DNA from: Anaerolineales bacterium
GTDB taxonomy: Bacteria > Chloroflexota > Anaerolineae > Anaerolineales > E44-bin32
NCBI GenBank assembly: GCA_037379555.1
Contig: JARRJK010000013.1
Location: forward strand, 3,514 to 67,513
DNA length: 64,000 nucleotides
Direction of reading: 5' to 3'
Shown here: one piece after another, positions 1-44,340 of the stretch
How positions within the stretch are numbered: the first letter of the stretch is position 1
Layout of the letters: the number at the start of each line of letters is the position of its first letter
Position numbers and translations under genes: made by a program
Notes under the pieces: generated by a model
What the model was told of the DNA's origin: nothing
Databases searched by the model: none
Seen by the model: only the letters and a program-made list of their open reading frames with translations

Positions 1-1
1 C

Positions 2-1324
2 GTGACAGGTGCTGTTCGAGCAGAACGAGCTGTTGTCGACGCCGCCGGGGTTGCCGGTCGTATGACAGTTGCTGCAGGACGGCTCCAGCACATCGCGGTG
101 GAGCGAGATCCAGTTTGGATTGCGGTGCGAATCGGGCTCCGGACCGCGGCTGATCTCGACTTCGGCGACGAAATCGGTCGGCCCCGCTTCGACCGGGATC
201 GAGTGGCACAGGTTGCATTCGAGGCGGATCGCCTGCGCCTGGGGATCAAGGTGTTTGCCGTCGTGGCAGCGGAAGCATCCGGGCGAGTCCTTGTGACCGA
301 CGTTTGAGGGGTGGCTGTTCCAGTCCGCTTTTTGCTCCGGGTACACGCTGGTGCTGTAGGAATCCTGGAGCACTTCGATCGCCTGATCGACCAGCCCGGA
401 GGAATCGGCGAAGAATTCGGGGTAGTTGACCCGGTAATAATCCCGCAAGCTCTCAATGCCGATCAGCGCCATCTCGACCGAAGCGTACTTGGCGCTGAAT
501 ACCTCGACGGCTTTCAAGCGTATATCGGGGATATCAGCCGAGATCTGCTCCCTTGCCATCAGGTTGTCTACCAGGTCTTCAGGATGCAGGATCAGGTGAG
601 TGATGCGGTTGTGACAGGTGATGCAATCCATCAGCTTGAGGTCTTCTGGGTTGATCGACGCGGGATCGATCTCTGAGTCGATCGCGACGTAATCCGTCAC
701 GCTGCCATCGTCCTCGACCACCTGCACGTACGGGATGTCTTGTTCCTCGGGGTCAGTCGGCAGGTAGTAGACCTCGTTCAGGATATGCCAGTGGATGCCG
801 CGGCCGAGACCCTCCCGTTCGGAACCACCGCCGGTCTTGAGCGTCATATAGATGCTGATCGGGGTGTTATTGCGATCGGGCTCGAAGCGGCGGATCTCGA
901 GCAGGGTGTCGCTGGAGAATTTCTCGGGGAAATGGCAGCGTTCGCAGCTCTCACGCGCCGGACGCATATCGTGGGCCCGGATCGGGAACTCATAGGTCTT
1001 GAACATTGTGGCGAAGATGTGCTTGATATCGCCAGCCTTGCGCGTGACGCGGGTGGCGATGAAGCCGCGTCCGATATGGCACTCAACGCAGTCGATTCGG
1101 GCATGCGGGGATACCAGGTAGGAGGTGTACTCGGGCGGCATCGTGTGGCAGCTGGTGCCGCAGAATTCGGGCGAGTTGGTGTATTCCCAGCCGATCGGAA
1201 TGAGCAGCAGGATGACAATCGTCAGCGCGCCGAGGACCAGGTAGGGGCGCAGGCGCACCCACAGGGTTGCATCTTGTGGTGGGAAAAAGAAACGTTGCAG
1301 ACGTGCTCCGAATCGACGAAGCAT
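2..1324 (-). CDS. Membrane-anchored NapC/NirT-like multiheme cytochrome c. C-terminus lies beyond the left window edge. Absent from the supplied ORF track.
   Basis: I translated the minus strand myself from ATG 1324..1322, which has GGAGGA 8 nt upstream. I checked all 441 codons and found no stop down to position 2, which explains why the track omits it. Sequence starts MLRRFGARLQRFFFPPQDATLWVRLRPYLVLGALTIVILLLIPIGWEYTNSPEFCGTSCHTM... It has one N-terminal TM helix, then CGTSCH (CX3CH), CVECH, CERCH, CITCH, CFRCH, CNLCH, CSNCH and CSNSTCH at the edge. Confidence 0.8.
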   Translation of the reverse strand, partial: MLRRFGARLQRFFFPPQDATLWVRLRPYLVLGALTIVILLLIPIGWEYTNSPEFCGTSCHTMPPEYTSYLVSPHARIDCVECHIGRGFIATRVTRKAGDIKHIFATMFKTYEFPIRAHDMRPARESCERCHFPEKFSSDTLLEIRRFEPDRNNTPISIYMTLKTGGGSEREGLGRGIHWHILNEVYYLPTDPEEQDIPYVQVVEDDGSVTDYVAIDSEIDPASINPEDLKLMDCITCHNRITHLILHPEDLVDNLMAREQISADIPDIRLKAVEVFSAKYASVEMALIGIESLRDYYRVNYPEFFADSSGLVDQAIEVLQDSYSTSVYPEQKADWNSHPSNVGHKDSPGCFRCHDGKHLDPQAQAIRLECNLCHSIPVEAGPTDFVAEVEISRGPEPDSHRNPNWISLHRDVLEPSCSNCHTTGNPGGVDNSSFCSNSTCH

Positions 1325-1378
1325 GGCGCATACTCCTCCATAATTATGGCGATCGTTATCCAACCTGCAGATCTGTTG

Positions 1379-2581
1379 CTATTGCTTGGGAGCTCCGGCA
1401 GAAATCCACTCGATGACCTGCTCGAGCTCGGCATCCGTCAACTGGCCTGGATGCCCCCCCGCCCGCTGCACCTGTACCAGCATGCTGGCTTCAGGATCGC
1501 CAGGCACAATCGCTGGGCCATCCTCCCCACCTTGCAGCGCTTTCTCATACGTTTGCAGCGATAAGCCGCCGACCGCCGTCACACCGTGGCACGTTCCGCA
1601 GCGGTTGCGGAAAAGCGCCTCGAAACCGCCATCCCAGGATTGATCGCTGATCACGAACGCCTCGCCCGTCGGGGTTGGTGGAAGCGTGGGCGTCGGTTCA
1701 GGGACAGCGGTGACAAAAACATCGGCCGTTTCGCCCTGCGGTATGGTTGTGATGCTGGTTTGTTCTCCGGTGACATAAAAGGCTACCCCAGCCAGCATCA
1801 GCACGCTCAATACCCCGGCGACTGGCAGGAAGACCCGCTGCCGGCGGCGCAGGACTTCCGGCGCTGGATCGCGATGGATTCGACCTGCTTCGATCCTCTC
1901 CAGTTCCGCTGGATGTTCTTCCTCCATCTCCTCCTGGGTCAGATAGCCGGTGAACATGCTGCGGTTGAAGTGGCGCAGGTGCACGTGATAGAAGTGCCAG
2001 AGCAGGATAGCCAAAACAGCCAGGATCGCTTCGGCACCATGGGCAGCCTTGGCGGCCGGGATGAATTCTCCAGGCATGATACGGGTCGTGAGGATGGGGT
2101 TCCACATCATGAAGCCGGTGAGAGCCATGATCACGATGCCCCAGACCACCGCCAGGTACTCCATCTTCTCAGCGTAGGAGTAGCGGCCGTAGCGGGCCTT
2201 ATGCTTGCTCACCCCGAAATAAGCCAGCAGGTCCTGATAGAGATCCTTGAAATCCTTCAGGCCGGGAAGCATCGTCCAGGAGACGCGCCGGACGTAGACC
2301 CGGTACAGCAGCCCGATCACGTGGTAGATGCTGACCAGCATGAGCACGATCGCCGAGCTGCGGTGGATCACGCGCACCGGTTCGATACCGCCAAAGAGGC
2401 GGAAAAAGCCGATGCTGACCTGAACATCAGGGAACTTCTGCGGCAGACCGGTGATCGCCAGGATCGTGAAGGAGGTCAACATCACGATATGTTCAAGGCG
2501 CTGCGAGAGGTCGAAGCGCAGGAAACGTTTCGGCTTTTCCTTGTTCGATTCGTGCTGAACGGCGGGGCGCGGCTCACTCAT
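1379..2581 (-). CDS. Diheme cytochrome b (FdnI/HydC, Ni_hydr_CYTB-like, 4 TM) fused to an extra TM helix and a C-terminal monoheme cytochrome c domain
   Basis: 400-aa ORF. The N-terminal region has conserved His in TM helices (RLEHIV, IHRSS, YHV, AHGAE, WHFYHVH). The C-terminus reads FRNRCGTCHGV...GDPEASMLVQ..., resembling the planctomycete-type cytochrome c (PSCyt1) domain. It is a paralog of 3837..4574. Confidence 0.8.
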   Translation of the reverse strand: MSEPRPAVQHESNKEKPKRFLRFDLSQRLEHIVMLTSFTILAITGLPQKFPDVQVSIGFFRLFGGIEPVRVIHRSSAIVLMLVSIYHVIGLLYRVYVRRVSWTMLPGLKDFKDLYQDLLAYFGVSKHKARYGRYSYAEKMEYLAVVWGIVIMALTGFMMWNPILTTRIMPGEFIPAAKAAHGAEAILAVLAILLWHFYHVHLRHFNRSMFTGYLTQEEMEEEHPAELERIEAGRIHRDPAPEVLRRRQRVFLPVAGVLSVLMLAGVAFYVTGEQTSITTIPQGETADVFVTAVPEPTPTLPPTPTGEAFVISDQSWDGGFEALFRNRCGTCHGVTAVGGLSLQTYEKALQGGEDGPAIVPGDPEASMLVQVQRAGGHPGQLTDAELEQVIEWISAGAPKQ

Positions 2582-3840
2582 AAATCACCCCCCGCGTCAT
2601 CGCTTTCATCTAGAGCTTGCGTCTTATCGCTCTCGCCTTCGCCGTCGGTGGAAAAGCGCTGGTCGCCCTCCGATGGGGCAGGCGGCTCTTCGGGCTCAGA
2701 CTCGGCTTTCGCAGCCGCTCGCCGCTTCCGGATATACCAGGTGACATCAAGCACAACCAGCACGCCCATCCCTCCCAGCAGGCCCGGGATGAAGATGCTG
2801 TAGAAGAGATTCACGTAGTAGACCAGCGGGTTGTGCTGTGGGGATGGAATATAGTGCGAGAGCCAGGCGCCCGAGAAATTGGTGGTTGCGTCGGGATGGC
2901 ATACCTGGCAGCGTTTGAGCAGGTTCTGCTTGAACTCCAAGCCACTCTCAGGGTCACTCACGCTTTGAATATCGTGCACGCCATGGCAGTCGTAGCATAC
3001 GGCCTTGTTGGTCGGAGCATCGGGAGAGACTTTCTCGAAGATGGTGACGGTGGTGCCATGGAAATCGGCGACGTAGGTGTTCAGCACCTGAGTCGAGATG
3101 CCGTACTTGTCCATGATCTTGGGGTCGGTATGGCATTTAGCACAGATTTCCGGCGAGAGTAGCCGGAAGCGGGCCGTCGTTGGATCCTCGATGTTGTGCA
3201 CGCCGTGGCAGTCGATGCAGGTCGGCACATCACGGTTGTTCTCGTTGACAAGCGCATTGCCGTGCACGCTGGTCAGGTACTTGCGGTAAATCGCGTTGTG
3301 GCACTTGGCACATGTGACCGGGATGTGCAGCCGCGCCTCGGGCAGCAGTTCGTCCGTGCGCGGGTCGGTCAGCTGTTGTATGTTGTGTGCCCCGTGGCAG
3401 TCGGTGCAAATGGCAGCCTGGCGGTTGCCTGATTCGAGAGCGTTTTCATGCACGCTGTCGAGCGTGCGCTCGTACTGTCCCGAGTGGCATCGAAAACAAG
3501 CATCATAGAGTTCGAGCGCCAGATCGCGCTGATCAGTAGCGCTGAATGACGGGTGAGGGTACCCCTCGAGATCGGTATGGCACTGCACGCAGGCATAGCC
3601 GAGCTTGCCGTGAATCGAATTGTCGTACACCGCCTGGTCGATATAGAGCGAAGCCGTTTCTCCGTTCTCGAGCTGGAAGGTGAGTCCGGAATCGGCATGG
3701 CATTTGAGGCAGCTCTCGTTGCTCACACCGGCCTGGGGTAGCGGGGTTGCGTCAGCCCGGTGTGTGGTCAATGCAAGCGTGACCGCAATGGCGGCGAGGG
3801 CAAGGGTGAGGATGGTCCAATGTCGGATGCGATGACTCAC
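2578..3840 (-). CDS. Nonaheme cytochrome c with signal peptide, C-terminal TM anchor and acidic tail
   Basis: 420 aa with 9 CXXCH motifs (CLKCH, CVQCH, CFRCH, CTDCH, CAKCH, CIDCH, CAKCH, CYDCH, CQVCH). C-terminal hydrophobic helix IPGLLGGMGVLVVLDV. ATGA start/stop overlaps with both neighbouring genes. Confidence 0.85.
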   Translation of the reverse strand: MSHRIRHWTILTLALAAIAVTLALTTHRADATPLPQAGVSNESCLKCHADSGLTFQLENGETASLYIDQAVYDNSIHGKLGYACVQCHTDLEGYPHPSFSATDQRDLALELYDACFRCHSGQYERTLDSVHENALESGNRQAAICTDCHGAHNIQQLTDPRTDELLPEARLHIPVTCAKCHNAIYRKYLTSVHGNALVNENNRDVPTCIDCHGVHNIEDPTTARFRLLSPEICAKCHTDPKIMDKYGISTQVLNTYVADFHGTTVTIFEKVSPDAPTNKAVCYDCHGVHDIQSVSDPESGLEFKQNLLKRCQVCHPDATTNFSGAWLSHYIPSPQHNPLVYYVNLFYSIFIPGLLGGMGVLVVLDVTWYIRKRRAAAKAESEPEEPPAPSEGDQRFSTDGEGESDKTQALDESDDAGGDL

Positions 3841-4574
3841 TCGGGCTCTCCGTCTGGCGGCGGACTTGTCTCGCCGGTCAGGCGCTCAAATTCACGTTCA
3901 TGGAATTCGCGCATTTCGCGTTCGCTCAGCCGGCCTGTGAAGATGCTAAGGTTGAGCCGTTCGATGTGGACGTGGTACGAATGCCACATGACGACGAAGA
4001 TCGCCGCTGCGATCGCCTCCGCGCTGTGGGCGAGCTTCGCGGCGGGGATGATACCTCCAGGCAGCACGCGCGTAAAGAGCACCGGGAACCAGATCAGCAG
4101 CCCGGAGAGGATCATGATCGCTATGCCAAAAATGAAAAACCAGTAGGTGAACTTCTGCTGGAAGGTGAACTTGCCGAAGGAAGGCTTTTTACGGTCAATG
4201 AAAAGCAGCCAGCGCAGCATCTTGAAGCCGTCGCGCACATCTTGAACGACAGGGAGCATCTCGCCGCTCAAGCGCCGCTGGAAGAGCCGGACGGTTGTCC
4301 GCCCGACGTGGTAAAGCGCTTCGGCGATCAGCAAGACGGCGGCGATATGGTGGATCGTCTGGATCATCTCGACGCGTTCGGGTGTGGAGAGGATGTACTG
4401 GCTCCAGCTGGCGGCGCGGTACTTCTGGGGTAGGCCGGTCAGCAGCAGCACGGTGAAGGTGATCAAAAAGAGCGCGTGCTCCCAGCGCTGTGCGAGCGAA
4501 AAACGGACGAAGGTACGCTCGGTATGCACATGGCCATCCCGCGCAGTTTTTAGAGTTGATTCGTTTGCGGTCAT
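3837..4574 (-). CDS. Diheme cytochrome b (FdnI/HydC-like, 4 TM)
   Basis: I chose the internal start MTANEST at 4574. It has GGAGGA upstream and an ATGA overlap with the stop of the upstream gene at 4571. The track's longer start at 4736 would overlap the upstream cytochrome gene. Motifs RWEHALF, IHHIAA, AHSAE, WHSYHVH. Confidence 0.8.
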   Translation of the reverse strand: MTANESTLKTARDGHVHTERTFVRFSLAQRWEHALFLITFTVLLLTGLPQKYRAASWSQYILSTPERVEMIQTIHHIAAVLLIAEALYHVGRTTVRLFQRRLSGEMLPVVQDVRDGFKMLRWLLFIDRKKPSFGKFTFQQKFTYWFFIFGIAIMILSGLLIWFPVLFTRVLPGGIIPAAKLAHSAEAIAAAIFVVMWHSYHVHIERLNLSIFTGRLSEREMREFHEREFERLTGETSPPPDGEPE

Positions 4575-5586
4575 GGCAAGTTCCTCCGCACACGGTCCAC
4601 CGTCGCCCGAATGATGCGCAGCAGGACGTAGCCGCCCGCCAGCAGCAGGGTAAAGGGCACGAAGTACGAATAGAAGGCATTGGTATAGAAGACCAGCGGC
4701 GTGCGTTCGAGGCTGATCTCGTTGTGCCCGGTCCACGCTCCGGTCCAGTTCGGCCCGGCGTCAGGGTGGCACTTGCGGCAGGTCGTTAGCAGGTTCTCGG
4801 AGCTGACCGTTGAGGCCGGGTTGCTCGCAGGCAGGATGTTGTGGACGCCGTGGCAGTCGGTGCAGACCGCGCTCTCGTGCCAGATCGTCGGCCAGTTGGC
4901 TTTATAGACCTCGACATCGACGCCGTGCCAGGAGATGCTGTACAAGTTGTAGACATCGGTGTCATAGCCGTACTTGGCCATCAATTCAGGGTTGGCATGG
5001 CAGCCAGCACACAGCTCCGGCGAGCCGATGCGGAAGAGCGCGGTGCGCGGGTCTTGAATGTTATGTCAGTGTGGCACTGGCCGCACGTCTCGGAGATCAG
5101 CGACCGCGGTTCATCAGGGTACTGGGTGTAATGTGCGCCGTGGCAGTCGGTGCACACCGGCGCTTCCAGATGGCCAGCAGCAGCGATGTCAGCGTGGATG
5201 CTGTCTAGGCTGTTCTCGTAATTGGTGGCATGGCAGGTTCGGCAGGTGAGATAGAAAGCCCGGGAGAGTTCCCGCCGCGTGTCGTATTCGATTTCTGGAT
5301 GCGGGTAGCCGGTGATTTCGGGATGGCAGGAGTCGCAGCTGATGCCGATCTGTTCGTGGACCGATCCTTCCAGGCGCTTGGCGTCGATGGTCAGCGGCAG
5401 CACTTCCCCACTGGGCAGTTCGATCTCAAGGTCGGGCTGCGTGTGGCATGCGAGGCACTCCTGCTCTTGAAACTGGCTCTGCTGAGGATTTTCATCGGCA
5501 AAAGCCGGTGCGACGAGCAAACAAAGTGCCAGAAGCGCCAGGCTGAGCAGTATCATTCGTGAGAGATTTCGCCGTGTGTGGATCAT
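4571..5586 (-). pseudogene. Multiheme (8 x CXXCH) cytochrome c, paralog of 2578..3840, split by a single-nucleotide frameshift near 5065
   Basis: Track ORFs 4981..5586 and 4571..4984 are the N- and C-terminal halves of one protein that aligns to the 420-aa paralog. The alternate frame reads HNIQDPRTALFRIGSPELCAGCHANPELMAKYGYD directly after CGQCHTD. Duplicating one C (GAC-CAT) restores CGQCHTDHNIQDP, matching CIDCHGVHNIEDP in the paralog. Confidence 0.75.
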
Positions 5587-5763
5587 CTACGAGATCTCCT
5601 CGACTTCGGTTTCCTCGACCTGATCGTCCTCGCTGTTGTTCTCCATGATCAAACCCCACTTGCGCAGATAGTGCGAAATCAGGAGCATGATCCCGAGCGG
5701 CACCAGGCAGCGGCCGATGAACATGAGCGCTACGACAATTGGATTGGCGATAGTTTCATCCAT
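5587..5763 (-). CDS. Small single-TM protein with acidic C-terminal tail
   Basis: ATG at 5763 has GGAGG 8 nt upstream. Its stop TAG abuts the ATG of the next gene at 5586. Sequence: MDETIANPIVVALMFIGRCLVPLGIMLLISHYLRKWGLIMENNSEDDQVEETEVEEIS. Confidence 0.5.
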   Translation of the reverse strand: MDETIANPIVVALMFIGRCLVPLGIMLLISHYLRKWGLIMENNSEDDQVEETEVEEIS

Positions 5764-5801
5764 ACGCACTGCCTCCGAGCGCGCTGACCCGGGAAAGGGA
5801 G

Positions 5802-5826
5802 TAGCCGCACTGATCCAGTGCGGCTA
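5802..5826 (-). other. Intercistronic perfect 10-bp stem-loop between the NrfD-like gene and the small ORF
   Basis: TAGCCGCACT-GATCC-AGTGCGGCTA. No U-tract follows it on the transcribed strand. Confidence 0.5.
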
Positions 5827-5850
5827 TCTTGGACTGATCCCGGAGCTTTG

Positions 5851-7086
5851 TCAACCAGCCGCGTGCGTCTCCTCATCCGGCCTGAACAGCGGGAGGAAGC
5901 GCATCGCCAGGGTGAAGATCAGGAAGATGTAGCCGACCACGCCCAGCACCACGCCCCATTCAATCAGCGCCGGGGTGTAGGATTGCGGTGGGAGCACGTA
6001 TTCTGTGCCGGGCGAATAGGATACGGGCACGATCAGGCCAGAAACCGTCACGTTCCAGCGGTTGATCAGGATACCGGCCGCCGCGCTCAGCGCTCCGATG
6101 ACCAGGTTGACCGGCCGGCGGTTGAAGCGCGGCACAAGGAACATCAGCACCGGGATGATAATGCCCAGGAATACCTCGCCCACCCAGAACCAGAACCCGT
6201 AGGCGGTGAACAGGTTGAGCGTGCGGAAAGCCCGCTCCGAACCGGGCGTCGATCCGTAATACGTCACAGCGGCGAGATCCCAGAATTTGATATAGGCGTA
6301 CACCAGCAGCGTCAGCCCGCTGAAACGGGCGATCGTGCGCAACAGATCATGGGCGATCGTGCGCTTGCCGCTGATCCATTCCAGGATGAAGGCCGCCGCC
6401 ATCGTCACCGCTGGGCCGACGGCGATCGCCGATACGATGAACATGATCGGCATGCTCGGCTTGAACCAAATCGGGCGGGCCTTGATGATGCCATAGGTCG
6501 CGCCGAGCGATGACTGGTGCAGCAGTGAGACGAGCAACCCTGCGACAGCCAGGACCGGTGCTACACGGTGCAGCGCGTGTCCGAACTTCCGCAGCCATGG
6601 CAGGCGGTTGAAGATATGCGACTCGACGATCACAGGCGCGAACTCGACTAGCATGATCGTCAGGTACAGCGTGATGCACCAGGTGATCTCCCATAGGACC
6701 GAGTGCACGTTCCAGTAGATCCAGGGGTGGTAGAAGCGGTCCGGTCGGCCGATGTCCATCACCAGTGTGAGCAGAGCGGACGTATAGCCGACCACGCCGA
6801 CCAGTACGGCCAGGCGGATGACGGAGCGAAAGCGTTTGATGCCGAAGATGTACACGACGGCCGAAAGCGTGAAGGCGCCTGCACCGAGGGCGATCGATGA
6901 GAGATCGATCGTGATCCACAAACCCCAGGGAACGGCGTTGGTCAGGTTGGTGACGACCAGCCCTTCTTTGAAAACGACAATCGCCGAGACGACGCCAATC
7001 AGCAGCAGCAAGCCTACCAGTCCGAACCAGGCGACGGTTCCTGGGCTGACATTCAATTGTCGATTGCGGAGTGTGATCGTCGCCAT
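5851..7086 (-). CDS. NrfD/PsrC-family polytopic membrane quinol-interacting subunit
   Basis: 411 aa and highly hydrophobic with many TM helices. It sits immediately downstream (2-nt gap) of a Tat-exported 4Fe-4S protein, which is the classic NrfCD/PsrBC arrangement. Confidence 0.85.
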   Translation of the reverse strand: MATITLRNRQLNVSPGTVAWFGLVGLLLLIGVVSAIVVFKEGLVVTNLTNAVPWGLWITIDLSSIALGAGAFTLSAVVYIFGIKRFRSVIRLAVLVGVVGYTSALLTLVMDIGRPDRFYHPWIYWNVHSVLWEITWCITLYLTIMLVEFAPVIVESHIFNRLPWLRKFGHALHRVAPVLAVAGLLVSLLHQSSLGATYGIIKARPIWFKPSMPIMFIVSAIAVGPAVTMAAAFILEWISGKRTIAHDLLRTIARFSGLTLLVYAYIKFWDLAAVTYYGSTPGSERAFRTLNLFTAYGFWFWVGEVFLGIIIPVLMFLVPRFNRRPVNLVIGALSAAAGILINRWNVTVSGLIVPVSYSPGTEYVLPPQSYTPALIEWGVVLGVVGYIFLIFTLAMRFLPLFRPDEETHAAG

Positions 7087-7088
7087 GG

Positions 7089-7916
7089 CTATGCTTCCTC
7101 GCTGACCGGAATGTAGTACACACTGCCTTCGGTCCCCAGCTCATCCCGCAAGCGAGTCGTCGGCTGACGGTCGAGTACCTGGGAGATGTTGCTCTCGGGG
7201 TCTTTCAGATCGCCGAAGACGCGCGCCCCGACCGGGCAGATGTTGACGCACGCGGGTGTCGCTTCGCGCGCTTCGCCTGGAATGAGCCCTTTCTTTAAAC
7301 CGCTGTCGATGCGCTGGACGCAGAAAGTGCACTTCTCGACCACGCCGCGTGGCCTGCGCTCCACCTCCGGCACGCCCCAGGTCGGGACATATACGTTCTC
7401 ATCGCTGCGGGCTTCCCAGTTGAATTTGCGGGCGTCGTAGGGACAGGCCACCTCACAGTAGCGGCAGCCGATGCAGCGTTCGTAATCCATGATCACCAGT
7501 CCGTCCTCGCGCACGTAGGTCGCCCTCACCGGGCAGACCTCGACGCAGGGGGCGTGCTGGCAGTGAAGGCAGGGACGGCTGAAGTAGAATTTGCGGCCGT
7601 TGACCGTGCTGTCCTCGACCACGATGTTCCAGGGTTTATCAGGGGCGACGTCGTTTACCGCCGAGCAAGCCCGCATGCAATACTCGCAGCCGATACATTT
7701 GCGCAGGTCGATCACCATGCCCCAATGATGATCACCAGAGGCACCATGGACCTCCTCCTCGGTCGTGAGCTGCTGGCGCTTGAGGTTGCCGAAGGGCGAC
7801 AGCGGGCCGGTCGTGACGAGGTAGGCGGCCAGCGACGAGCCCGCCGCCGTGGCGGCGATGCGGGTGAAATCCCGCCTCGTCAGCTTGACCTTAACTTTCG
7901 TTTTCCGTCGACTCAT
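7089..7916 (-). CDS. Tat-exported 4x[4Fe-4S] ferredoxin subunit (NrfC/PsrB/DmsB-like)
   Basis: Twin-arginine signal LTRRDFTRIAATAAG. Cys clusters CIGCEYCMRAC, CLHCQHAPCVEVCP, CIGCRYCEVACP, CTFCVQR, ACVNICP. I chose the start at MSRRKTK (7916). It overlaps the upstream gene by 26 nt. Confidence 0.85.
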   Translation of the reverse strand: MSRRKTKVKVKLTRRDFTRIAATAAGSSLAAYLVTTGPLSPFGNLKRQQLTTEEEVHGASGDHHWGMVIDLRKCIGCEYCMRACSAVNDVAPDKPWNIVVEDSTVNGRKFYFSRPCLHCQHAPCVEVCPVRATYVREDGLVIMDYERCIGCRYCEVACPYDARKFNWEARSDENVYVPTWGVPEVERRPRGVVEKCTFCVQRIDSGLKKGLIPGEAREATPACVNICPVGARVFGDLKDPESNISQVLDRQPTTRLRDELGTEGSVYYIPVSEEA

Positions 7917-8907
7917 CCTCGTCGTCTCCTTCAATCTCAACCAGCTCAATGTTGCGGCTTACGATCCAGGCCGCCACCGCGCCAGTCGCCAGACCCACGA
8001 TCGCGCCCTGCGCCAGGCCGGTGTACAGCCGCACGCTGGCTTTGTCCTCCAGGTCGGAAATCTGCTGCTCCTGCTCCTGGACCAGCCGGCGCAGCTCGTC
8101 CGTATCGAGATCCTTGAGCGTCTGGACTTCGCCAGTGAGTTCAAGGATCACATCGCGGGTGTGCACCGTATCCTGGTGGCAGCCGATGCAGGCTTCGGAA
8201 CCGACGGTGAAGGTATGGCCGGTCGGGATCAGGCCCTCGATCGGGTCCTCCGTGCGCGGGCTGGTGTACATATGGCAGTTCGAACACTCGAGTCCGGCGT
8301 TGGCATGGGAACTGTGGGTGAACGAATCGCCGTTGTCATGATGGCAGTTAGTGCATAGTTCAGTGACCGTGGCTGCCAGCGGCTTCTGGGCATGCGGATC
8401 GTGGCAGGACTGGCACTCGATTCCGGCCGCCCGGTGCGGGCTGGCTAGCCATTCATCGGTCGTGGTCTTATGGCAGGTCGCGCACAGGTTGTGATCCGGT
8501 GTGACCGACATCGGTTCAGCCGGATGTCCCGGTTGAAACGGTCCATGACACGATTCGCACGTTACACCCTCAATAGCGTAGGTGCCTGCCTCGGCGTCAT
8601 AGCCGGTGGTATGGCACTCCAGGCAGTCGAATTGGCTGCCCAGTTCACTCCAGTCTTTCTGGAAGATCGGTGAGGAGAATGCCCGTGCATGGCGGGTGAG
8701 CTGCCATTCGGCGTGAATCTCCTTGTGGCAGACGGCACAGGTCTCGGGCCCGGCGTAAGCCCCTTCCTGTGGGGACGGCTTTGGGGCGGGTGAAGCGGAG
8801 GCCGTACGAGCGTATCCGCTCGCCGCGCCCAACGCGAGGCAGACGGCGAAGGTGATAGCGAACGCAGCCGCCCCTCTCCCGATCCTTCGGTTCATCAGTC
8901 GTTTCAT
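7891..8907 (-). CDS. Octaheme cytochrome c with signal peptide, C-terminal coiled coil, TM anchor and acidic tail
   Basis: 338 aa with 8 CXXCH motifs (CAVCH, CLECH, CESCH, CATCH, CQSCH, CTNCH, CSNCH, CIGCH). The C-terminus reads ...ELRRLVQEQEQQISDLEDK..GLAQGAIVGLATGAVAAWIV..EIEGDDEDESTENES. AGGAG lies 8 nt upstream of the ATG at 8907. Confidence 0.85.
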   Translation of the reverse strand: MKRLMNRRIGRGAAAFAITFAVCLALGAASGYARTASASPAPKPSPQEGAYAGPETCAVCHKEIHAEWQLTRHARAFSSPIFQKDWSELGSQFDCLECHTTGYDAEAGTYAIEGVTCESCHGPFQPGHPAEPMSVTPDHNLCATCHKTTTDEWLASPHRAAGIECQSCHDPHAQKPLAATVTELCTNCHHDNGDSFTHSSHANAGLECSNCHMYTSPRTEDPIEGLIPTGHTFTVGSEACIGCHQDTVHTRDVILELTGEVQTLKDLDTDELRRLVQEQEQQISDLEDKASVRLYTGLAQGAIVGLATGAVAAWIVSRNIELVEIEGDDEDESTENES

Positions 8908-8969
8908 GCCTGTGCTCCTGTATCAGCTCACTCCACCAGCGGTCGTTGCACACTGCGTGGGCGAAATGA

Positions 8970-8985
8970 CCCATTCATGAATGGG
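8970..8985. promoter_or_regulatory. Perfect 16-bp palindrome CCCATTCATGAATGGG in the cytochrome operon leader or operator region
   Basis: The sequence is its own reverse complement. It lies 63-78 bp upstream of the octaheme start codon at 8907. Confidence 0.45.
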
Positions 8986-9066
8986 GGAATCAACCTACTT
9001 TCCCTCCGTACAAGCATGCTAACGCGAGCTTCCTATGGCATACAGTATCGCTGCTCCTCGATGAAT

Positions 9067-9082
9067 TGTGATATATATCACC
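9067..9082. promoter_or_regulatory. CRP/FNR-family binding site candidate (TGTGA-N6-TCACc; core 14-bp perfect palindrome GTGATATATATCAC)
   Basis: Matches 9 of 10 positions of the CRP consensus TGTGA-N6-TCACA. It also reads GTGAT-N4-ATCAC, close to the FNR consensus TTGAT-N4-ATCAA. On the minus strand, a -10-like TACTGT (9046..9041) would place a transcription start about 41 nt from the site centre, which is class II geometry. Confidence 0.5.
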
Positions 9083-9268
9083 TTTCAGGTAAAGCGTGTC
9101 GCATACAGATTGGTATGCAGTATGCTCTCTTTGGACACTCGCGCCTCGCGAACGATTTCATCCCCCATTAATCAAGCTATGGAAGAATCATACGTGTTGC
9201 ATGATTGGGTCGATTGAACCTACATCGGTTTGATGACAATCGTCCTCTCCAGAACAGCCGATGAAAGA

Positions 9269-9277
9269 TGATAGAAT
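9269..9277 (+). promoter_or_regulatory. Extended -10 promoter element (TGATAGAAT) for the ccm operon
   Basis: TGnTAgAAT lies 51 nt upstream of the ccmE ATG. The same GATAGAAT(T/C)C box recurs at 33111 and 63767, each time upstream of a gene. Confidence 0.4.
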
Positions 9278-9327
9278 TCGTGGGCTTTATGGACTGGTAA
9301 AACAGGGCCTCATGGGAGTTGAACCGT

Positions 9328-9849
9328 ATGACTGACAGGAAAGCAGAGAATCTACCCGCTGGGAGTAGCGGTCGGGCGAAGTTCCTGATCGGCGGCCTGT
9401 TGATCGTGGCAGCGATCGTCTATCTGATCGCTTCTTCCACGCAAGCTGCAGCGCAGTACTACCTGACGATCGATGAACTGATGGTCAAGGGCGAAGCGAT
9501 GCGTGACCGTGACGTGAAGATCTCCGGCGCGGTCGACGGGGAGACGATCGCCTACGATGCCAAAACCCTGACCTTGACTTTCGACATCGCCAACGTCCCG
9601 GGCGACCTGGACGAGATCGAGCAGGCCGGTGGGCTGGCGGAAGTGCTGCATCAGGCGGTCAATAATCCCGATGCCCGGCGCCTGACGGTGATGTATGAGG
9701 GGCCGATGCCTGATCTGCTGCGGAATGAAGCCCAGGCGATCGTCACCGGACGGCTGGGCGATGACGGTGTGTTCCACGCCGACGAACTGCTGCTCAAGTG
9801 CCCCACACGCTACGAGGAAGAGGTCCCGCTGCAGTCGGAGCAGGGTTGA
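9328..9849 (+). CDS. ccmE: Heme chaperone CcmE, Cys-variant (CXXXY)
   Basis: N-terminal TM anchor. MYEGPMPDLLRNEAQAIVTGRL...ADELLLKCPTRYEE aligns with E. coli [22 protein letters not shown]...AKEVLAKHDENYTP. I prefer the ATG at 9328 (GGGAG 9 nt upstream) over the track's TTG at 9319. Confidence 0.85.
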   Translation: MTDRKAENLPAGSSGRAKFLIGGLLIVAAIVYLIASSTQAAAQYYLTIDELMVKGEAMRDRDVKISGAVDGETIAYDAKTLTLTFDIANVPGDLDEIEQAGGLAEVLHQAVNNPDARRLTVMYEGPMPDLLRNEAQAIVTGRLGDDGVFHADELLLKCPTRYEEEVPLQSEQG

Positions 9850-9929
9850 ACCCTGCGGGTCGCGATGCGGCCCCGACGCTGATCGTTCGCGTGTTCCCCA
9901 TGAGTTACTGAATCAGGAGGCCTGGCTTC

Positions 9930-12002
9930 GTGATCGCCAATTTTGGATATTTTGCACTGATCATCACGTTTGTCACAGCTTTGTATGGCGCCGGCGCAGC
10001 AGCATACGGCGCCATTCAGCGCAAGCCGGAGCTGGTCGAAAGCGCCCGGCGGGCGATGCTGCTCACTTTTCCTCTGACCTCACTGGCGGCGCTGTCGATC
10101 ATCGCCCTGCTCGTCGGCGGACATTACGAAATCCGCTACGTAGCGCAGGTCACGAGCTCGAGCATGCCGACCTACCTCAAGGTGACCGCGCTGTGGGGTG
10201 GGCAGGAAGGATCGCTGGTCTTCTGGTCATGGCTGATGTCGGCGTTTGCCACGGCAGCCAGCCTGCGCAAGTGGGAGCGTGACCGCGAGCTGCTGCCGTG
10301 GATCATCGTGGTCACGATGGTCACGCTGGCTTTCTTCCTCTCGCTGGTGATCTTCTTTGAGAATCCGTTTGTCCGTTTATGGCTGACGCCCACTGGCGAG
10401 CAAGTCGGCGCCATGCTCCAGCCGGCTGGCGCCCGGGCGCTGACCCCCAGCGATGGGCAGGGCTTGAACCCGCTGCTGCGGCACCCCGGCATGGTCATCC
10501 ATCCGCCGATGCTTTACCTGGGCTTCGTCTCTTTCGTCATCCCGTACGCGTTCGCCATGGCGGCGCTGATCACACGCCGCAGCGACGACCGCTGGATCCG
10601 CATCACACGCCGCTGGACGCTCGTCGCCTGGCTGTTCCTTTCGCTCGGACTGATCCTGGGTGGGCGCTGGGCATATGATGTGCTCGGATGGGGCGGGTAC
10701 TGGGGCTGGGATCCGGTTGAGATCGCAGCCTTCATGCCCTGGCTCTCCGGGACGGCCTTCCTGCACTCGGTCATGGTGCAGGAGAAGAAGGGCATGCTCA
10801 AGCATTGGAACATGGTGCTGATCATTCTCACCTATGCGCTGGTCATTTTCGGCACCTTCCTGACCCGCTCGGGCGTGCTCTCCTCCGTGCATGCCTTCGC
10901 CCAATCGGCTATCGGGCCGATGTTCTTCATCTTCATCGGCATTACCTCGATCAGTTCGCTGGCGCTGCTTGTCCAGCGCTGGTCGATTCTGAAAAGCGAT
11001 AATCACCTCGAGTCGATGTTCTCGCGCGAGGCGCTTTTCCTGCTGAATAACTTGCTCTTCATGGGCATCCTGGTCATCTGCTTCTGGGGCGTGATCTTTC
11101 CCCTGATTTCGGAATTGGTCACCGGATCGAAAGTCACCGTCGGCCCGCCGTTCTACGAGCGGGCGACCAGTCCGCTTTGGTTGGGCCTGCTGCTGCTGAT
11201 GGGCGTGGCCCCGCTGTCGGCATATGCCAGCAGCACCTTTCGGACGATCGGCCGGGCGGCCTGGAAACCGGCGCTGGCCTCGCTGGCTGTCCCGATCGGC
11301 ATGTTCGCAGCCGGGTACAGCAGCATCGGCGCCATCCTCGGCTATTGGCTCGCAGCTTTTGTAGCCATCGTGACGCTTTACGAGTTCTGGCGTGGCGCGC
11401 TCGCCCGCCGACGGCGGCATAGCGAGTCACTGCCGCTGGCGCTCTGGCGCCTGGCCGGCCGCAACCGCCGCCGCTATGGGGGCTATGTGATCCACCTCGG
11501 CGTCGTGCTGATGGCGTTCGGCATCATCGGCATTGAGGTCTTCCAAACCGAAACGCAGGCCACGCTTGCACGCGGCGAACAGCTCACCCTCGGCCGCTAT
11601 GTGATGACATACGATGCGCTGACGCAATTCGACACCGCCGATGGGCGCAATGTCGCCCGGGCCGTGGTCTCGGTATATCACGATGGCAAATATGTCGGCG
11701 AGCTCTATCCGCGCAAGGACTACTACTACGTCTCACAGCAGCCGATGACCATTCCCGGCGTGCGGTCGACGCTGGAGGATGATTTCTACGTCCTGCTTGT
11801 CGGCTGGGAACCGATCGCGCAGCAGGGTGCGACCTTCAAGGTGTATCACAACCCGCTGGTCAATTTCGTCTGGCTCGGCGGTCTGGTATTCATTCTGGGC
11901 ACAGCCGTCGCCGCCTGGCCAGATCAGGACCCGGAGCCTGCCCGCAGCCGCCTGCGGTCGCGTGGCCTGACGCCGGGGGCATACCCGAGGAAAGCGACAT
12001 GA
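9930..12002 (+). CDS. ccmF: Cytochrome c-type biogenesis heme lyase CcmF
   Basis: 690-aa polytopic protein with the WWD motif WGGYWGWDPVE. GTG start with GGAGG upstream. Confidence 0.9.
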   Translation: MIANFGYFALIITFVTALYGAGAAAYGAIQRKPELVESARRAMLLTFPLTSLAALSIIALLVGGHYEIRYVAQVTSSSMPTYLKVTALWGGQEGSLVFWSWLMSAFATAASLRKWERDRELLPWIIVVTMVTLAFFLSLVIFFENPFVRLWLTPTGEQVGAMLQPAGARALTPSDGQGLNPLLRHPGMVIHPPMLYLGFVSFVIPYAFAMAALITRRSDDRWIRITRRWTLVAWLFLSLGLILGGRWAYDVLGWGGYWGWDPVEIAAFMPWLSGTAFLHSVMVQEKKGMLKHWNMVLIILTYALVIFGTFLTRSGVLSSVHAFAQSAIGPMFFIFIGITSISSLALLVQRWSILKSDNHLESMFSREALFLLNNLLFMGILVICFWGVIFPLISELVTGSKVTVGPPFYERATSPLWLGLLLLMGVAPLSAYASSTFRTIGRAAWKPALASLAVPIGMFAAGYSSIGAILGYWLAAFVAIVTLYEFWRGALARRRRHSESLPLALWRLAGRNRRRYGGYVIHLGVVLMAFGIIGIEVFQTETQATLARGEQLTLGRYVMTYDALTQFDTADGRNVARAVVSVYHDGKYVGELYPRKDYYYVSQQPMTIPGVRSTLEDDFYVLLVGWEPIAQQGATFKVYHNPLVNFVWLGGLVFILGTAVAAWPDQDPEPARSRLRSRGLTPGAYPRKAT

Positions 12003-12493
12003 AACGCAGGCTCATCCACTCGGTTGGCATCATCCTTCTGCTGCTGGCGTTTCTGCAGCTGGAGGCGTTCAGCGCGTTTGGCCAGGGCAGTGGACCGACG
12101 GATGATGAGGTCAACGCGATCGCCAGCCAGCTCTATTGTCCGGTCTGTGAGAATGTGCCGCTCGATGTCTGCCCAACGCAGGCATGCGTGCAATGGCGGG
12201 CGACGATTCGCGAAAAGCTCGCCGCCGGTTGGAGCGAAGACGAGATCAAACAGTACTTCGTCGAGCAATACGGCGCCCGGGTGCTCGCCACCCCGCCTGC
12301 TGAAGGCCTGAACTGGCTGGTCTACGTCCTGCCGCCGGCGGCGCTTTTAGCCGGCGCCTTTGTGCTGTTCCGCGCCGTGCGGACATGGCATGCAGAACCA
12401 GAACCCGCGGCAGGCCCGGTGCCCCCTGAGGAAGCAGAAGACGACCCTTACCTTGCCAAGCTGGAGGAAGAGCTGAAGCGCCGGGAGGTTTGA
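11999..12493 (+). CDS. ccmH: Cytochrome c biogenesis thiol-disulfide protein CcmH
   Basis: Signal peptide, LYCPVCENVPLDVC (the CXXC motif of CcmH/NrfF), then a TM helix. It aligns to E. coli LRCPKCQNNS...YGNFVTYDPP. ATGA overlap with ccmF. Confidence 0.8.
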   Translation: MKRRLIHSVGIILLLLAFLQLEAFSAFGQGSGPTDDEVNAIASQLYCPVCENVPLDVCPTQACVQWRATIREKLAAGWSEDEIKQYFVEQYGARVLATPPAEGLNWLVYVLPPAALLAGAFVLFRAVRTWHAEPEPAAGPVPPEEAEDDPYLAKLEEELKRREV

Positions 12494-12517
12494 CCCGGCT
12501 CAGGCGATGAAGATCTG

Positions 12518-13093
12518 ATGACGGATGAAGTTTCCACCAACGATAACTCTGTGAAAGTTCCACAGCGCTCGACGAATCTGCGCTGGGGTGTCATCGCGGC
12601 CTTCGTGCTGCTGATCGGACTGCTCGTCGTGCTCGGCCTCGGGCTTAAACGCACGTCACAGGGACCGATTGGCGTCGGCGACGAAGTCCCGGACCTAACC
12701 CTGACGACGTTCGACGATGGCGATATCCATTTCGAGGACCTGCGAGGTCAGGTCATTGTGGTGAATTTCTGGGCTTCGTGGTGCAAACCCTGTGAGGGCG
12801 AAGCAGCCGATCTGGAGACAGCCTACCAGATGTACCGCGATCAGGGAGTGGTCTTCCTGGGGGTAGATTACGTCGATACCGAACCCGAAGCGCGCGGCTA
12901 TCTCGAGCAGTTTGAGATCAGCTACCCGAATGGGCCCGACCTGGGCACGCGCATCTCTCAGGCGTTCCGCATTCGGGGTGTGCCGGAGACGTATGTGATT
13001 GGACCCGATGGCCGCCTGGCGGCGGTGAAGATCGGCCCTTACAACTCGCTTGACGAGATCGTCGCTCATATCGAAACGGCCCTGGCTCAATAG
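12518..13093 (+). CDS. ccmG: Membrane-anchored thioredoxin-like thiol:disulfide oxidoreductase (CcmG/DsbE/ResA-like)
   Basis: N-terminal TM helix, VVNFWASWCKPCEGE (WCXXC), and position within the ccm operon. Confidence 0.8.
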   Translation: MTDEVSTNDNSVKVPQRSTNLRWGVIAAFVLLIGLLVVLGLGLKRTSQGPIGVGDEVPDLTLTTFDDGDIHFEDLRGQVIVVNFWASWCKPCEGEAADLETAYQMYRDQGVVFLGVDYVDTEPEARGYLEQFEISYPNGPDLGTRISQAFRIRGVPETYVIGPDGRLAAVKIGPYNSLDEIVAHIETALAQ

Positions 13094-13213
13094 CGCGCTT
13101 GGAAGACTCTCCCTGCAGTCCGCTGACAGTCCACAGCCGACCAACGTGCCGCAGGCATGTGCGACGTGGTGGCAGTACGGCAGGACCGCAAGCGGCAAAG
13201 TAGAGGGTGAATT

Positions 13214-13678
13214 ATGGATCTTGGATCAGTCTTTCTGGGCATTGCCCTATTTCTGGTTGTGACGGCCATCCTGGCGCGCCCGCTGCTTGAGCATGCCGCA
13301 TCCACAGTCAGCGATGCGGAACGCCAGCTCTCGATGTTTCAGGCTGAACGCGATCGGATTCTTAACCGGCTGCAGGAACTCGATATGGATTTTGCGATGG
13401 GCAAGATCCTGGAAAGCGATTATCAAAATGAGCGGCGCGGATTGACGCAGGAGGGGGCAGATGTGCTGAGGGAGATCGACGCGCTGCGTTTGGGTGATAT
13501 CCCCGGCGGTGAAGCGCAGGCGCTGGAAGCGCGCATTGAGGCGGCGGTTGCCACCGCTCGCTCCAAGGCTCAAACCGGAGGCGGGTTCTGCCCGAACTGC
13601 GGCGCACCGATTCACAGCGGTGATCAATTCTGCACGCGCTGCGGACAGGCGCTGCAGCACGCGGAGGTGGAGGCATGA
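13214..13678 (+). CDS. CcmI-N-terminal-like membrane protein with C-terminal zinc ribbon
   Basis: N-terminal TM helix, then a coiled region LNRLQELDMDFAMGKILESDYQNERRGL resembling the CcmI cytoplasmic leucine-zipper loop, then CPNCGAPIHSGDQFCTRCG. There is no TPR region. Confidence 0.5.
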   Translation: MDLGSVFLGIALFLVVTAILARPLLEHAASTVSDAERQLSMFQAERDRILNRLQELDMDFAMGKILESDYQNERRGLTQEGADVLREIDALRLGDIPGGEAQALEARIEAAVATARSKAQTGGGFCPNCGAPIHSGDQFCTRCGQALQHAEVEA

Positions 13679-15597: not shown

Positions 15598-16288
15598 GGT
15601 CAGGGGTCTGGTCAAGACCTTCGGTCCCAAGCCTGTGCTGAAGGGCGTGGATTTTCACGTTGGCGAGGGAGAGTTCGTCGCGCTGCTTGGCCCCAATGGA
15701 GCCGGTAAGACGACCTTTCTGCGAATTCTCGCCACGCTGTCGCGCCCGCGCATCGGTTCGGTGCGGATTGCTGGCCACGCCCTGCCGGGACAGGCGGCTG
15801 CCGTCCGGCGGCGGCTGGGAGTTGTCTCACACCAGCCGCTTCTTTACGGCGATCTGACAGCGGAGGAGAATCTGCACTTCTTCGGCCGCATGTACGCCAT
15901 CGAAGGTCGTGAAGACCGCGTTCGCGAAGTCCTCAAACTGGTCGGCCTGTATCCGCGGCGGCGGGACCTGGTGCGCGAGTTTTCGCGCGGCATGCAGCAG
16001 CGGCTTGCGATTGGACGGGCGGTGATGCACCGCCCGGACGTCCTGCTTTTCGACGAGCCGCACACCGGGCTCGATCAGGATGCGCGCGTCATGCTCGACA
16101 CGGTGCTGCGCGAGATCACTACGGGCGGACGAACCGTCGTCATGACCACGCATGATCTCGACCGGGCGGCGGAGCTCGCTGACCGGATCGACATTCTATC
16201 CAGAGGCAAAATCGAAGCTTCGGTCGAGAGCGATCGAACGGATGTGGGCCAGCTGCAAGAGCTTTACCGCGAGGTCACACATGCCTGA
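15581..16288 (+). CDS. ccmA: Heme exporter ABC ATPase CcmA
   Basis: Walker A GPNGAGKTT, ABC signature FSRGMQQRL, Walker B LLFDEP. The start is uncertain (GTG 15581 or ATG 15590). Confidence 0.85.
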   Translation: MRSMIEVRGLVKTFGPKPVLKGVDFHVGEGEFVALLGPNGAGKTTFLRILATLSRPRIGSVRIAGHALPGQAAAVRRRLGVVSHQPLLYGDLTAEENLHFFGRMYAIEGREDRVREVLKLVGLYPRRRDLVREFSRGMQQRLAIGRAVMHRPDVLLFDEPHTGLDQDARVMLDTVLREITTGGRTVVMTTHDLDRAAELADRIDILSRGKIEASVESDRTDVGQLQELYREVTHA

Positions 16289-17006: not shown

Positions 17007-17052
17007 TGCCTGCTTGCAGCATGATACCCGTCAACCTGTGGAGTATGTCGAA

Positions 17053-34277: not shown

Positions 34278-34301
34278 AGTTGAACGGGGAGGGAATGCAG
34301 C

Positions 34302-41815: not shown

Positions 41816-41865
41816 CGCGCCTGTGTTTCAATCAACTGCCCGGAACCGGAGCGCGCGGGAGCCAT

Positions 41866-42879: not shown

Positions 42880-42903
42880 GGGGTCCCTCCAGGTTGTTGC
42901 CGA

Positions 42904-44265: not shown

Positions 44266-44340
44266 GATGGGATCTCCCTCGATAAAACGATTCGGCAGGG
44301 TGTGCGTCCTGAATGCCGATAGTGTCAACTTTCACAAGCA

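Follow-up and report, generated by a model that had tools for sequence, protein, structure and literature searches.

The first 8,907 nucleotides (nt) of a 64,000-nt stretch of DNA from an Anaerolineales bacterium (contig JARRJK010000013.1; the whole stretch is called the window here) carry a compact row of nine minus-strand genes, g1 to g9, for multihaem cytochromes c, dihaem cytochromes b, an iron-sulfur protein and membrane proteins of the NrfD and NrfH kinds. To judge by its sequence, this row (window 1-8907) is the upstream section of a longer operon, conserved among Anaerolineae, whose products are all electron carriers, with some 35-55 haems among them; four or five of these carriers belong to quinone-reacting families (NrfD, two FdnI-type cytochromes b, an NrfH-like protein and a Rieske/cytochrome b complex). 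The parts are all of known kinds: the cluster is a predicted combination, in kind, of CbcL, a module of the Cbc4/Nhc/Qrc type and an NrfH-type dehydrogenase, and it is a member of no named complex. What is new is their conserved combination, the split cytochrome c/b pairs in tandem, the nine-haem NrfH-like protein and the PSCyt1 ends that several of the proteins share. We hold with moderate confidence that the cluster would form a conduit carrying electrons outward from the menaquinone pool to the cell surface. No published description of the cluster was found in the full-text literature, whose coverage leaves out most subscription journals; there are only general remarks that the Anaerolineales are rich in multihaem cytochromes and are suspected of extracellular electron transfer (PMC7399161; bioRxiv 10.1101/2021.08.23.457424).

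The comparative evidence that the cluster is one selected unit is strong, although it stops short of proving co-transcription. A scan of one genome per GTDB species returned at least 589 related stretches, and the locus counts given here refer to the best 80 of them. The proteins of L001, a metagenome contig nearly identical to this part of the window, were searched against the six-frame open reading frames (ORFs) of these 80 loci; the resulting counts are lower bounds, many contigs ending inside the cluster. All 80 loci are from Chloroflexota and almost all are labelled Anaerolineae or Anaerolineales. The closest of the species-representative loci is only 82 % identical to the window, which means that the species of the window is not itself represented. 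The gene order 1-2-3-(4)-5-6-7-8-(9) is found again in the genomes of dozens of Chloroflexota species; the preliminary description of this DNA, made from the letters alone, had called the cluster an island, and it is no singular one. The genes g7 and g8 are present in 74 of the 80 loci, 49 of which also have g5 and g6; g1, g2, g3, g5, g6, g7 and g8 are found together in 37, and 13 add g9 and the Rieske/b block. The stop of g5 and the start of g6 share a 4-nt overlap of the ATGA type in 52 of 52 loci, and the other junctions are also tight across loci. More than 3400 homologs of g8 were found, and the named ones are all from metagenome-assembled genomes (MAGs) of Anaerolineales or Thermoflexales; likewise, the homologs of g1 that bear names are from Anaerolineales/Chloroflexi only. 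The haem counts are kept across orthologs at 47-92 % identity (8 haems in 74 of 82 orthologs of g1, for instance, and 9 CXXCH in 71 of 78 of g7), and the predicted motif numbers are therefore not due to chance.

The loci do vary. Some have an extra collagen-linked octahaem lipoprotein upstream, some have lost g5-g6, and in some g1-g3 are inverted, while a decahaem lipoprotein of about 720 amino acids (aa) often replaces or follows the Rieske/b block. This protein, made of two five-haem repeats, ends most of the loci among L004-L083 and weakly matches GSU1996 (3ov0), the Geobacter 'nanowire' cytochrome; the closest relatives of the window have a single five-haem unit in its place. The cytochrome c maturation genes ccmEF(H) lie upstream of the cluster in 25 of the 80 loci.

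In the window itself, a six-frame ORF listing with translation confirmed the row of nine genes, all on the minus strand and all at the place first reported (Table 1). They can be grouped into four modules: A (g1-g4), B1 (g5-g6), B2 (g7-g8) and C (g9). From g1 to g9 the successive junctions measure -26, +2, +87, 0, -4, -4, -4 and +54 nt (negative = overlap). The gaps had been described as being under 85 nt, which is nearly right; that between g3 and g4 comes to 87 nt if counted from the ATG, or to 81 nt if an upstream GTG is taken as the start. The promoter presumably lies in 8908-9318. A scan for consensus promoters and terminators gave counts not above those of shuffled sequences, with none at gene boundaries and none in 8908-9318, and an Rfam search of the window returned no match.

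Table 1. Genes of the cluster and adjoining features, in window coordinates
Feature	Position	Strand	Description
g1	7891..8907	-	338 aa; octahaem cytochrome c with 8 CXXCH, N-terminal signal/anchor, coiled-coil segment and C-terminal transmembrane helix (298-316)
g2	7089..7916	-	275 aa; Tat-exported ferredoxin-like subunit of the PsrB/NrfC/DsrO/QrcC type
g3	5851..7086	-	411 aa; NrfD-family integral membrane subunit, presumed quinone site
g4	5587..5763	-	58-aa peptide; one transmembrane helix, acidic tail, no known family
g5	4571..5586	-	membrane-anchored multihaem cytochrome c, paralog of g7 (42 % identity), frameshifted in the window
g6	3837..4574	-	245 aa; FdnI/HydC-type dihaem cytochrome b, 4 transmembrane helices
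g7	2578..3840	-	420 aa; nonahaem cytochrome c with signal peptide, C-terminal transmembrane helix and acidic cytoplasmic tail
g8	1379..2581	-	400 aa; FdnI-type dihaem cytochrome b, fifth transmembrane helix, Pro/Thr linker, C-terminal PSCyt1 monohaem c domain
g9	1..1324	-	NapC/NirT/NrfH-type membrane cytochrome; 5' 441 codons only, cut by the window start
Intergenic region	8908..9318		411 nt from g1 to the divergent ccmE; without an ORF assigned to any gene, presumed to hold divergent promoters
System I ccm operon	9319..17754	+	divergent and complete: ccmE, ccmF, ccmH, thioredoxin-like gene, 640-aa dihaem lipoprotein, ccmA, ccmB, ccmC

A unit of nine genes is an artefact of where the window begins, for the co-directional block runs at least three genes past position 1. 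Its continuation can be read in L001, a Joint Genome Institute (JGI) metagenome contig that is 99.9 % identical over window 1-12487. There, 29 nt beyond g9, begin the genes for a Rieske protein, for a protein like cytochrome b6 and for a subunit IV that carries seven monohaem c domains of the cbb3/c6-like kind (704 aa in all). The stretch (L001 12994-16272) matches Pfam Rieske, Cytochrome_B and Cytochrom_B_C, which places it in the Rieske/b family, and its NCBIfam scores (b6 235 bits against a subfamily cut-off of 325, b6f Rieske 82, subunit IV 34) point to no named equivalog. This Rieske/cytochrome b complex, missing from the earlier account, makes the unit longer than nine genes. Farther on, at wider spacing, are a lipoprotein with six haems and a collagen-like Gly-X-Y linker and then one with five haems. 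The collagen-like repeats stand right after the lipobox Cys (about 7 triplets in L001 16854-17861 and about 14 in L042 1791-3041), and the proteins that bear them have weak NCBIfam matches to the Scl/Lcl collagen-like adhesins; such repeats may be a rigid stalk that keeps the haems away from the membrane.

In the co-directional block of twelve genes there are 43 c-haem sites, along with six b haems, four [4Fe-4S] clusters and one Rieske centre, and with the two lipoproteins added the c haems reach 54. A search of this 15-kb block revealed no catalytic subunit (molybdopterin, NrfA-type CXXCK or oxidase). Three of its proteins, from membrane modules that are otherwise unrelated, end in a PSCyt1 monohaem domain: g8 (residues 315-400), g9 (482-568) and subunit IV (602-704; L001 14158-16272). 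The copies of g9 and subunit IV are 43 % and 32 % identical to that of g8, and these shared ends hint at a common hand-off point for electrons.

The same contig explains the state of g5. In the window this gene consists of two ORFs in different frames, 4981-5586 with 5 CXXCH and 4571-4984 with 2, and a third motif sits in the shifted frame. L001 carries 94 extra nt (L001 7423-7516) between window positions 5065 and 5066; the deletion removes one CXXCH and shifts the frame, and the intact g5 of L001 encodes 369 aa with 9 CXXCH, nine haems being also the number in 52 of 60 orthologs. The tally of 8+8+9+1+8 c-haem motifs in the preliminary description can be reproduced, but its 8 for g5 was obtained by reading across the frameshifting deletion that takes away one haem site, and the intact protein is a nine-haem one. 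An exact look-up found the truncated 201-aa product in no assembly on record, and the junction at 5065/5066 has no repeat or microhomology. The deletion may be a real strain variant or an assembly fault. The broken frame, the intact copy in a contig 99.9 % identical and the uniqueness of the truncated product could be taken to mean that the window's cluster is decaying, with g5 a pseudogene and the island not fully functional, or that the assembly is in error. We think this improbable as an account of the cluster. The other eight genes are intact and differ from the contig by few substitutions, the junction offers no microhomology or repeat by which an assembly collapse could be accounted for, and the paralogous pair g7/g8 could compensate for g5. 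Moreover, decay covers one gene in one assembly and leaves the nature of the cluster unexplained.

Annotation with profile hidden Markov models upheld the family calls made earlier, that is, Fer4_11 with a twin-arginine translocation (Tat) signal, NrfD, Ni_hydr_CYTB twice, PSCyt1 and Cytochrom_NNT, all of which are above the Pfam cut-offs. Ni_hydr_CYTB matches g6 at 44.2 bits and g8 at 54.3 bits, and PSCyt1 matches the C-terminus of g8 at 38.8 bits. The sole solved sequence relative of these two proteins is Escherichia coli FdnI (1kqf_C; E=2.5e-5 for g6 and 5.8e-9 for g8). Four histidines of g6 align to FdnI histidines in the motifs RACHW, ILHPF, LLIHAA and ILIHMY, and these four we take to be the haem ligands of FdnI. 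H33, H75, H183 and H198 of g6 are 100 % conserved in 58 orthologs, and H31, H73, H181 and H196 of g8 are invariant in 76. An AlphaFold2 model of g8 (predicted local distance difference test, pLDDT, 66; helical core 80-87) has, in a Foldseek comparison with the PDB, a single significant match, again 1kqf_C (E=5.4e-7, template modelling (TM) score 0.75). FdnI has four transmembrane helices and both of its ends are cytoplasmic; the fifth helix of g8 would thus bring its c-haem domain outside, as haem attachment requires.

The partnership of these cytochromes b with the adjoining multihaem proteins is revealed by homologs in which the two are joined. A full-library HMMER search with g7 returned 505 cluster representatives at E<1e-30. 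Several g7 homologs are single chains that consist of a nine-haem half (34-50 % identity), a transmembrane helix and a b half like that of g8 or g6 (35-54 % identity); examples are P0271, P0129 (Anaerolineae MAG), P0234 (Candidatus Schekmanbacteria), P0239, P0309 (Planctomycetota). Read as Rosetta stones, such fusions show each of the predicted c/b gene pairs to be one functional unit with the layout of CbcL, and the suggestion that the pairs are a split CbcL is well served by them. In the window and in the 80 related loci the c and b domains were never met in one polypeptide but as separate genes; two apparent g7-g8 fusions, of 783 aa in L035 and 829 aa in L039, were discarded as they span masked N runs read as X. 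None of the cluster proteins matched an NCBIfam model for CbcL. In two Planctomycetota loci (L086 and L087), fused CbcL-like genes of 622 and 636 aa follow directly on response-regulator genes. Neither has NrfD or NrfH modules in its vicinity; the fused gene stands alone, and the stacking of modules therefore seems, in this small sample, to be specific to the Anaerolineae.

CbcL of Geobacter sulfurreducens (GSU0274), whose relatives include MtoC and MtrH, is a menaquinol:periplasmic cytochrome oxidoreductase that works at low acceptor potential, and it consists of nine c haems followed by a HydC/FdnI-type dihaem cytochrome b, with six transmembrane helices (PMC6295460; PMC9129911; bioRxiv 10.1101/2022.08.31.506072). 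The Anaerolineae pairs resemble this published description in the nine-CXXCH domain on the outer face, in the HydC/FdnI-type dihaem b with four His ligands, in the total of about six transmembrane helices (one in g7 and five in g8) and in a quinone site presumed to be on the cytoplasmic side (bioRxiv 10.1101/2022.08.31.506072; PMC6295460; PMC9129911). They differ in that c and b are separate, translationally coupled genes, that the pair is duplicated in tandem, that the second cytochrome b, g8, bears an extra monohaem c domain, and that the c domain is longer (about 320 residues versus 250). A survey published in 2018 listed zero CbcL and zero CymA homologs in the Chloroflexi (PMC6295460). A split pair has an independent precedent, by analogy, in cell envelopes that lack an outer membrane: Mco, the methanophenazine:cytochrome c oxidoreductase of ANME-2, is a proposed membrane entry to extracellular electron transfer in such cells, and its gene for a VhtC/HydC-family b lies beside a separate gene for a cytochrome with 7-11 haems (PMC9012536). 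Mco is, however, archaeal, uses methanophenazine, and is a single pair with no stacked NrfD, NrfH-like or Rieske/b modules.

Module A joins g1 to a ferredoxin-like and an NrfD subunit. The octahaem g1 matches Pfam Cytochrome_C554, Paired_CXXCH_1 and Cytochrome_C7; its AlphaFold2 model is poor (pLDDT 55), and no fold match, the best being HAO-like, MccA and NrfB, reached E=0.01. In g2, which overlaps g1 by 26 nt, the translation contains the twin-arginine motif TRRDF and 16 Cys in four Cys4 ferredoxin motifs, and the Pfam Fer4_11 score is 62.9 bits. Pfam NrfD matches g3 with 114.7 bits over 309 residues. A phmmer search of g3 against the PDB gave no match, and a profile built from 16 orthologs found only 8k9e_C, a chain of the NrfD family (E=0.0017). 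No Pfam or NCBIfam match was obtained for g4, orthologs of which (33-79 % identity) occupy the same position in 37 loci.

The three-part logic of g1-g3, with a cytochrome c on the outer face, a Tat-exported ferredoxin-like subunit with four clusters and an NrfD membrane subunit, is that of Desulfovibrio Qrc and Hmc/Nhc, of DsrOP, NrfBCD, the core of alternative complex III (ACIII) and, by its description, Geobacter Cbc4. In the last (CbcSTU), a tetrahaem NapC-type cytochrome anchored in the membrane is combined with a protein that has four [4Fe-4S] clusters and with a subunit integral to the membrane (bioRxiv 10.1101/2025.04.14.648717); g2 and g3 resemble these latter two in kind. The Anaerolineae module departs from all of these in its lineage-specific octahaem cytochrome with a C-terminal anchor, as compared with a tetrahaem CbcS, a hexahaem QrcA and a pentahaem ActA or NrfB. 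Molybdopterin-like subunits are required for Qrc and ACIII, a NarI-type b and a CCG protein for Hmc and Dsr, and NrfA for Nrf. These defining subunits are absent, and the NCBIfam equivalog scores are below cut-off except for DsrO, which vindicates the view that the cluster is none of ACIII, Nrf, Qrc, Hmc or Dsr. Qrc was rejected on its scores (QrcD 285.3 for g3 against a cut-off of 570, QrcC 175.6 for g2 against 400) and because the block has no molybdopterin-family gene. ACIII comprises a large ActB (molybdopterin-like plus iron-sulfur), the NrfD subunits ActC and ActF, a pentahaem ActA and a monohaem ActE; the block has one 275-aa iron-sulfur protein, one NrfD and an octahaem cytochrome, with no ActB and no second NrfD. 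For Hmc/Nhc the scores were likewise low (HmcC 177.9 against 550 for g3, HmcB 74.7 against 420) and neither a NarI-type b nor a CCG protein is present; the four-gene layout of cytochrome, iron-sulfur protein, NrfD and small membrane protein nonetheless recalls, as we understand it, that of Nhc, g4 being reminiscent of the small hydrophobic fourth subunit of Hmc/Nhc. As to DsrMKJOP, g2 reaches 207.8 against the DsrO cut-off of 200, but DsrP stands at 48.3 against 350 for g3 and there are no genes for DsrM, DsrK or DsrJ. Annotation pipelines will probably mis-name g2 as DsrO for this reason. Nrf was rejected (NrfC 130.7 against 377.6, NrfD 35.6 against 347.6, NrfH 57.7 against 134.2 for g9, and no CXXCK in the block), as was Psr/Ttr, whose defining subunits are lacking and whose scores are below threshold; g2 scores 156 with TtrB and g3 scores 140 with HybB.

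The part of g9 inside the window (441 aa) has 6 CXXCH, one CX3CH and one CX4CH. The full protein in L001 (11258-12964) is 568 aa long, with 7 CXXCH, a CX3CH-x-M directly after the transmembrane helix and a CX4CH, and the two unusual motifs are both present in 39 of 39 orthologs. Residues 30-112 match Cytochrom_NNT (PF03264) at 45.1 bits against a cut-off of 24.1, so that g9 does belong to the NapC/NirT superfamily, as had been proposed. Like NrfH, CymA and NapC/NirT, it has an N-terminal transmembrane helix followed at once by a haem site with the CH-x-M signature; unlike the four-haem NrfH and CymA, it has nine haem sites in 568 aa, begins them with a CX3CH, has a later CX4CH and ends in PSCyt1. 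A likeness to ImcH, suggested alongside, did not become apparent. By its sequence g9, which is NrfH-like at its N-terminus only, has one transmembrane helix and nine haem sites; ImcH has three transmembrane helices and seven haems (PMC6295460).

How would such a set of carriers work? The c-haem and iron-sulfur parts all bear export or anchor signals in a scan for transmembrane helices and signal features, and we infer that all c-haem domains and the iron-sulfur protein are on the outer face of the cytoplasmic membrane. Menaquinol would be oxidised at sites on the positive (P) side by NrfD and the NrfH-like protein, and also by the Rieske/b complex; the pair of b haems in each FdnI-type subunit would give access to sites on the negative (N) side, a route already proposed for CbcL. 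In FdnI-type modules, release of protons into the cytoplasm would make these low-yield routes (bioRxiv 10.1101/2022.08.31.506072). The electrons would pool in a network of some 45-55 haems and leave it through lipid-anchored cytochromes, whose collagen-like or Pro/Thr-rich linkers would reach into the wall of a cell with no outer membrane. At the end of the chain would stand insoluble or high-molecular-weight acceptors such as Fe/Mn oxides, humics or partner cells. The parallel modules probably serve different windows of redox potential, a division of labour known in Geobacter from ImcH, CbcL and CbcBA, and the chain may be reversible. A monoderm envelope, which had been thought probable, fits the placement in Anaerolineae/Chloroflexota and the published view of their envelope (PMC5808234; PMC7399161). 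Thermincola potens and Ardenticatena maritima similarly have no outer membrane and have multihaem cytochromes associated with membrane and wall (PMC5808234). There is a weak match between g7 and the Thermincola surface cytochrome OcwA (6i5b), but no comparable set of quinone-reactive modules has been described in either organism; the cytochromes described from Ardenticatena are different proteins that have 7 haems at most, and a membrane cluster of this sort has not been reported from it (PMC5808234).

The idea of a conduit from the quinone pool to the cell surface, already put forward before this analysis, is strengthened by the downstream neighbours, which are long-linker lipoproteins that carry 5, 6 or 10 haems, while as a function it stays a prediction. 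Several observations weigh against it. The sequences fit an inward flow of electrons equally well; the protein nearest to g3 is QrcD, a subunit of a menaquinone reductase, and FdnI too reduces quinone; the Rieske/b block, found in 23 of the 80 loci, is not part of the core; ordinary respiratory chains, aerobic or denitrifying, typically have a Rieske/b complex that bears monohaem c domains; module B1, with its frameshifted g5, may be dead in the window's strain; and it is the spacing of the genes that suggests co-transcription. The cluster might work as an entry, its hardware serving as cytochrome c:menaquinone reductases in the manner of Qrc and of the Fdn-N redox loop. The outer haems would be reduced by low-potential donors outside the cell or in the periplasm, such as cathodic surfaces, partner cells, Fe(II) complexes or reduced humics; the FdnI-type b subunits and the NrfD module would reduce menaquinone electrogenically, and the Rieske/b complex would re-oxidise the menaquinol toward oxidases or N-oxide reductases. 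The QrcD and QrcC matches of g3 and g2, together with the DsrO match of g2, and the FdnI-type nature of g6 and g8 are in keeping with this, and a quinol-oxidising bc complex in the operon makes a chain from donor to menaquinone to bc coherent. Relatives of CbcL, MtoC and MtrH, also occur in Fe(II) oxidisers (PMC6295460), and Ardenticatena shows both anodic and cathodic current (PMC5808234). We nevertheless regard an inward role as rather unlikely, for most of the related loci lack the Rieske/b block and keep the decahaem lipoprotein, and the cluster has no donor-oxidising enzyme such as a hydrogenase or a formate dehydrogenase.

The same Rieske/b6-type complex, with its seven cbb3/c6-like domains, lends itself to a more conventional explanation, to which we give about as little credence as to electron entry: the cluster could be an ordinary hub on the periplasmic face, the organism's main menaquinol:cytochrome c oxidoreductase operon with no dedicated extracellular role, feeding reductases of soluble acceptors and haem-copper oxidases encoded elsewhere, with the multihaem proteins as the wires or capacitors of a supercomplex. 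Monohaem domains of the PSCyt1 kind typically donate electrons to soluble partners, and a nearby bd oxidase implies that the organism meets O2. Yet no known aerobic or denitrifying chain needs two nonahaem/b pairs, an octahaem-iron-sulfur-NrfD module and a nine-haem NrfH-like protein all at once; the conserved neighbours are multihaem lipoproteins with wall-spanning linkers and not reductases; and the bc block is dispensable in most loci. A bolder proposal, for which we would claim still less, is that the four or five quinone-reactive modules, rather than being alternatives, make up one Anaerolineae-specific supercomplex with an internal menaquinone loop. NrfD, the NrfH-like protein and Rieske/b would oxidise quinol on the P side, the FdnI-type b haems would give the N side a route for reducing or oxidising quinone, and everything would converge on the PSCyt1 hand-off. 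An outward conduit remains our preferred reading of the cluster.

The rest of the window has some further features of note. The divergent ccm operon gave Pfam matches to CcmE, Cytochrom_C_asm/CcmF_C, CcmH, AhpC-TSA/Redoxin, Cytochrome_CBB3, ABC_tran and CcmB. Its lipoprotein gene (13675-15597, plus strand) encodes 640 aa, in which two c-haem domains of the cbb3 type are accompanied by a C-terminal transmembrane helix and a large beta-rich region that is unassigned; we know of no such component in System I maturation. The minus strand carries, at 38319-44328, cydA and cydB of a cytochrome bd oxidase with a pair of ABC transporter genes of the cydDC type, by which the organism can use or detoxify O2, and at 46689-48167 the gene for the selenocysteine synthase SelA, from which it follows that the organism makes selenoproteins. 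Several weak NCBIfam matches of the cluster cytochromes are to '(seleno)protein' cytochrome families. On the plus strand (33192-36764), a gene like PLD-family nucleases (DrmC-like in PADLOC, E=1e-22) precedes one for an 820-aa HerA/DUF87-like ATPase with mad8/HerA matches, and the two may be a two-gene defence system. An exact look-up of an 821-aa MutS2 returned nothing on record.

The Anaerolineae are among the most abundant uncultured bacteria of sediments, aquifers, soils, sludge and anode biofilms. For the exit of electrons from their quinone pool, the cluster offers a concrete and testable candidate for the missing membrane step; it also gives surveys a marker gene order, and students of CbcL-type enzymes a natural series of split versus fused forms. 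If the modules do form one supercomplex, it would be an energy-conserving or potential-adapting machine for extracellular electron transfer in a monoderm, of a kind not described in Geobacter, Shewanella or the Firmicutes. More generally, the keeping of several quinone-reactive architectures in one operon bears on how respiration may be tuned to the potential of its acceptors in cells without an outer membrane.

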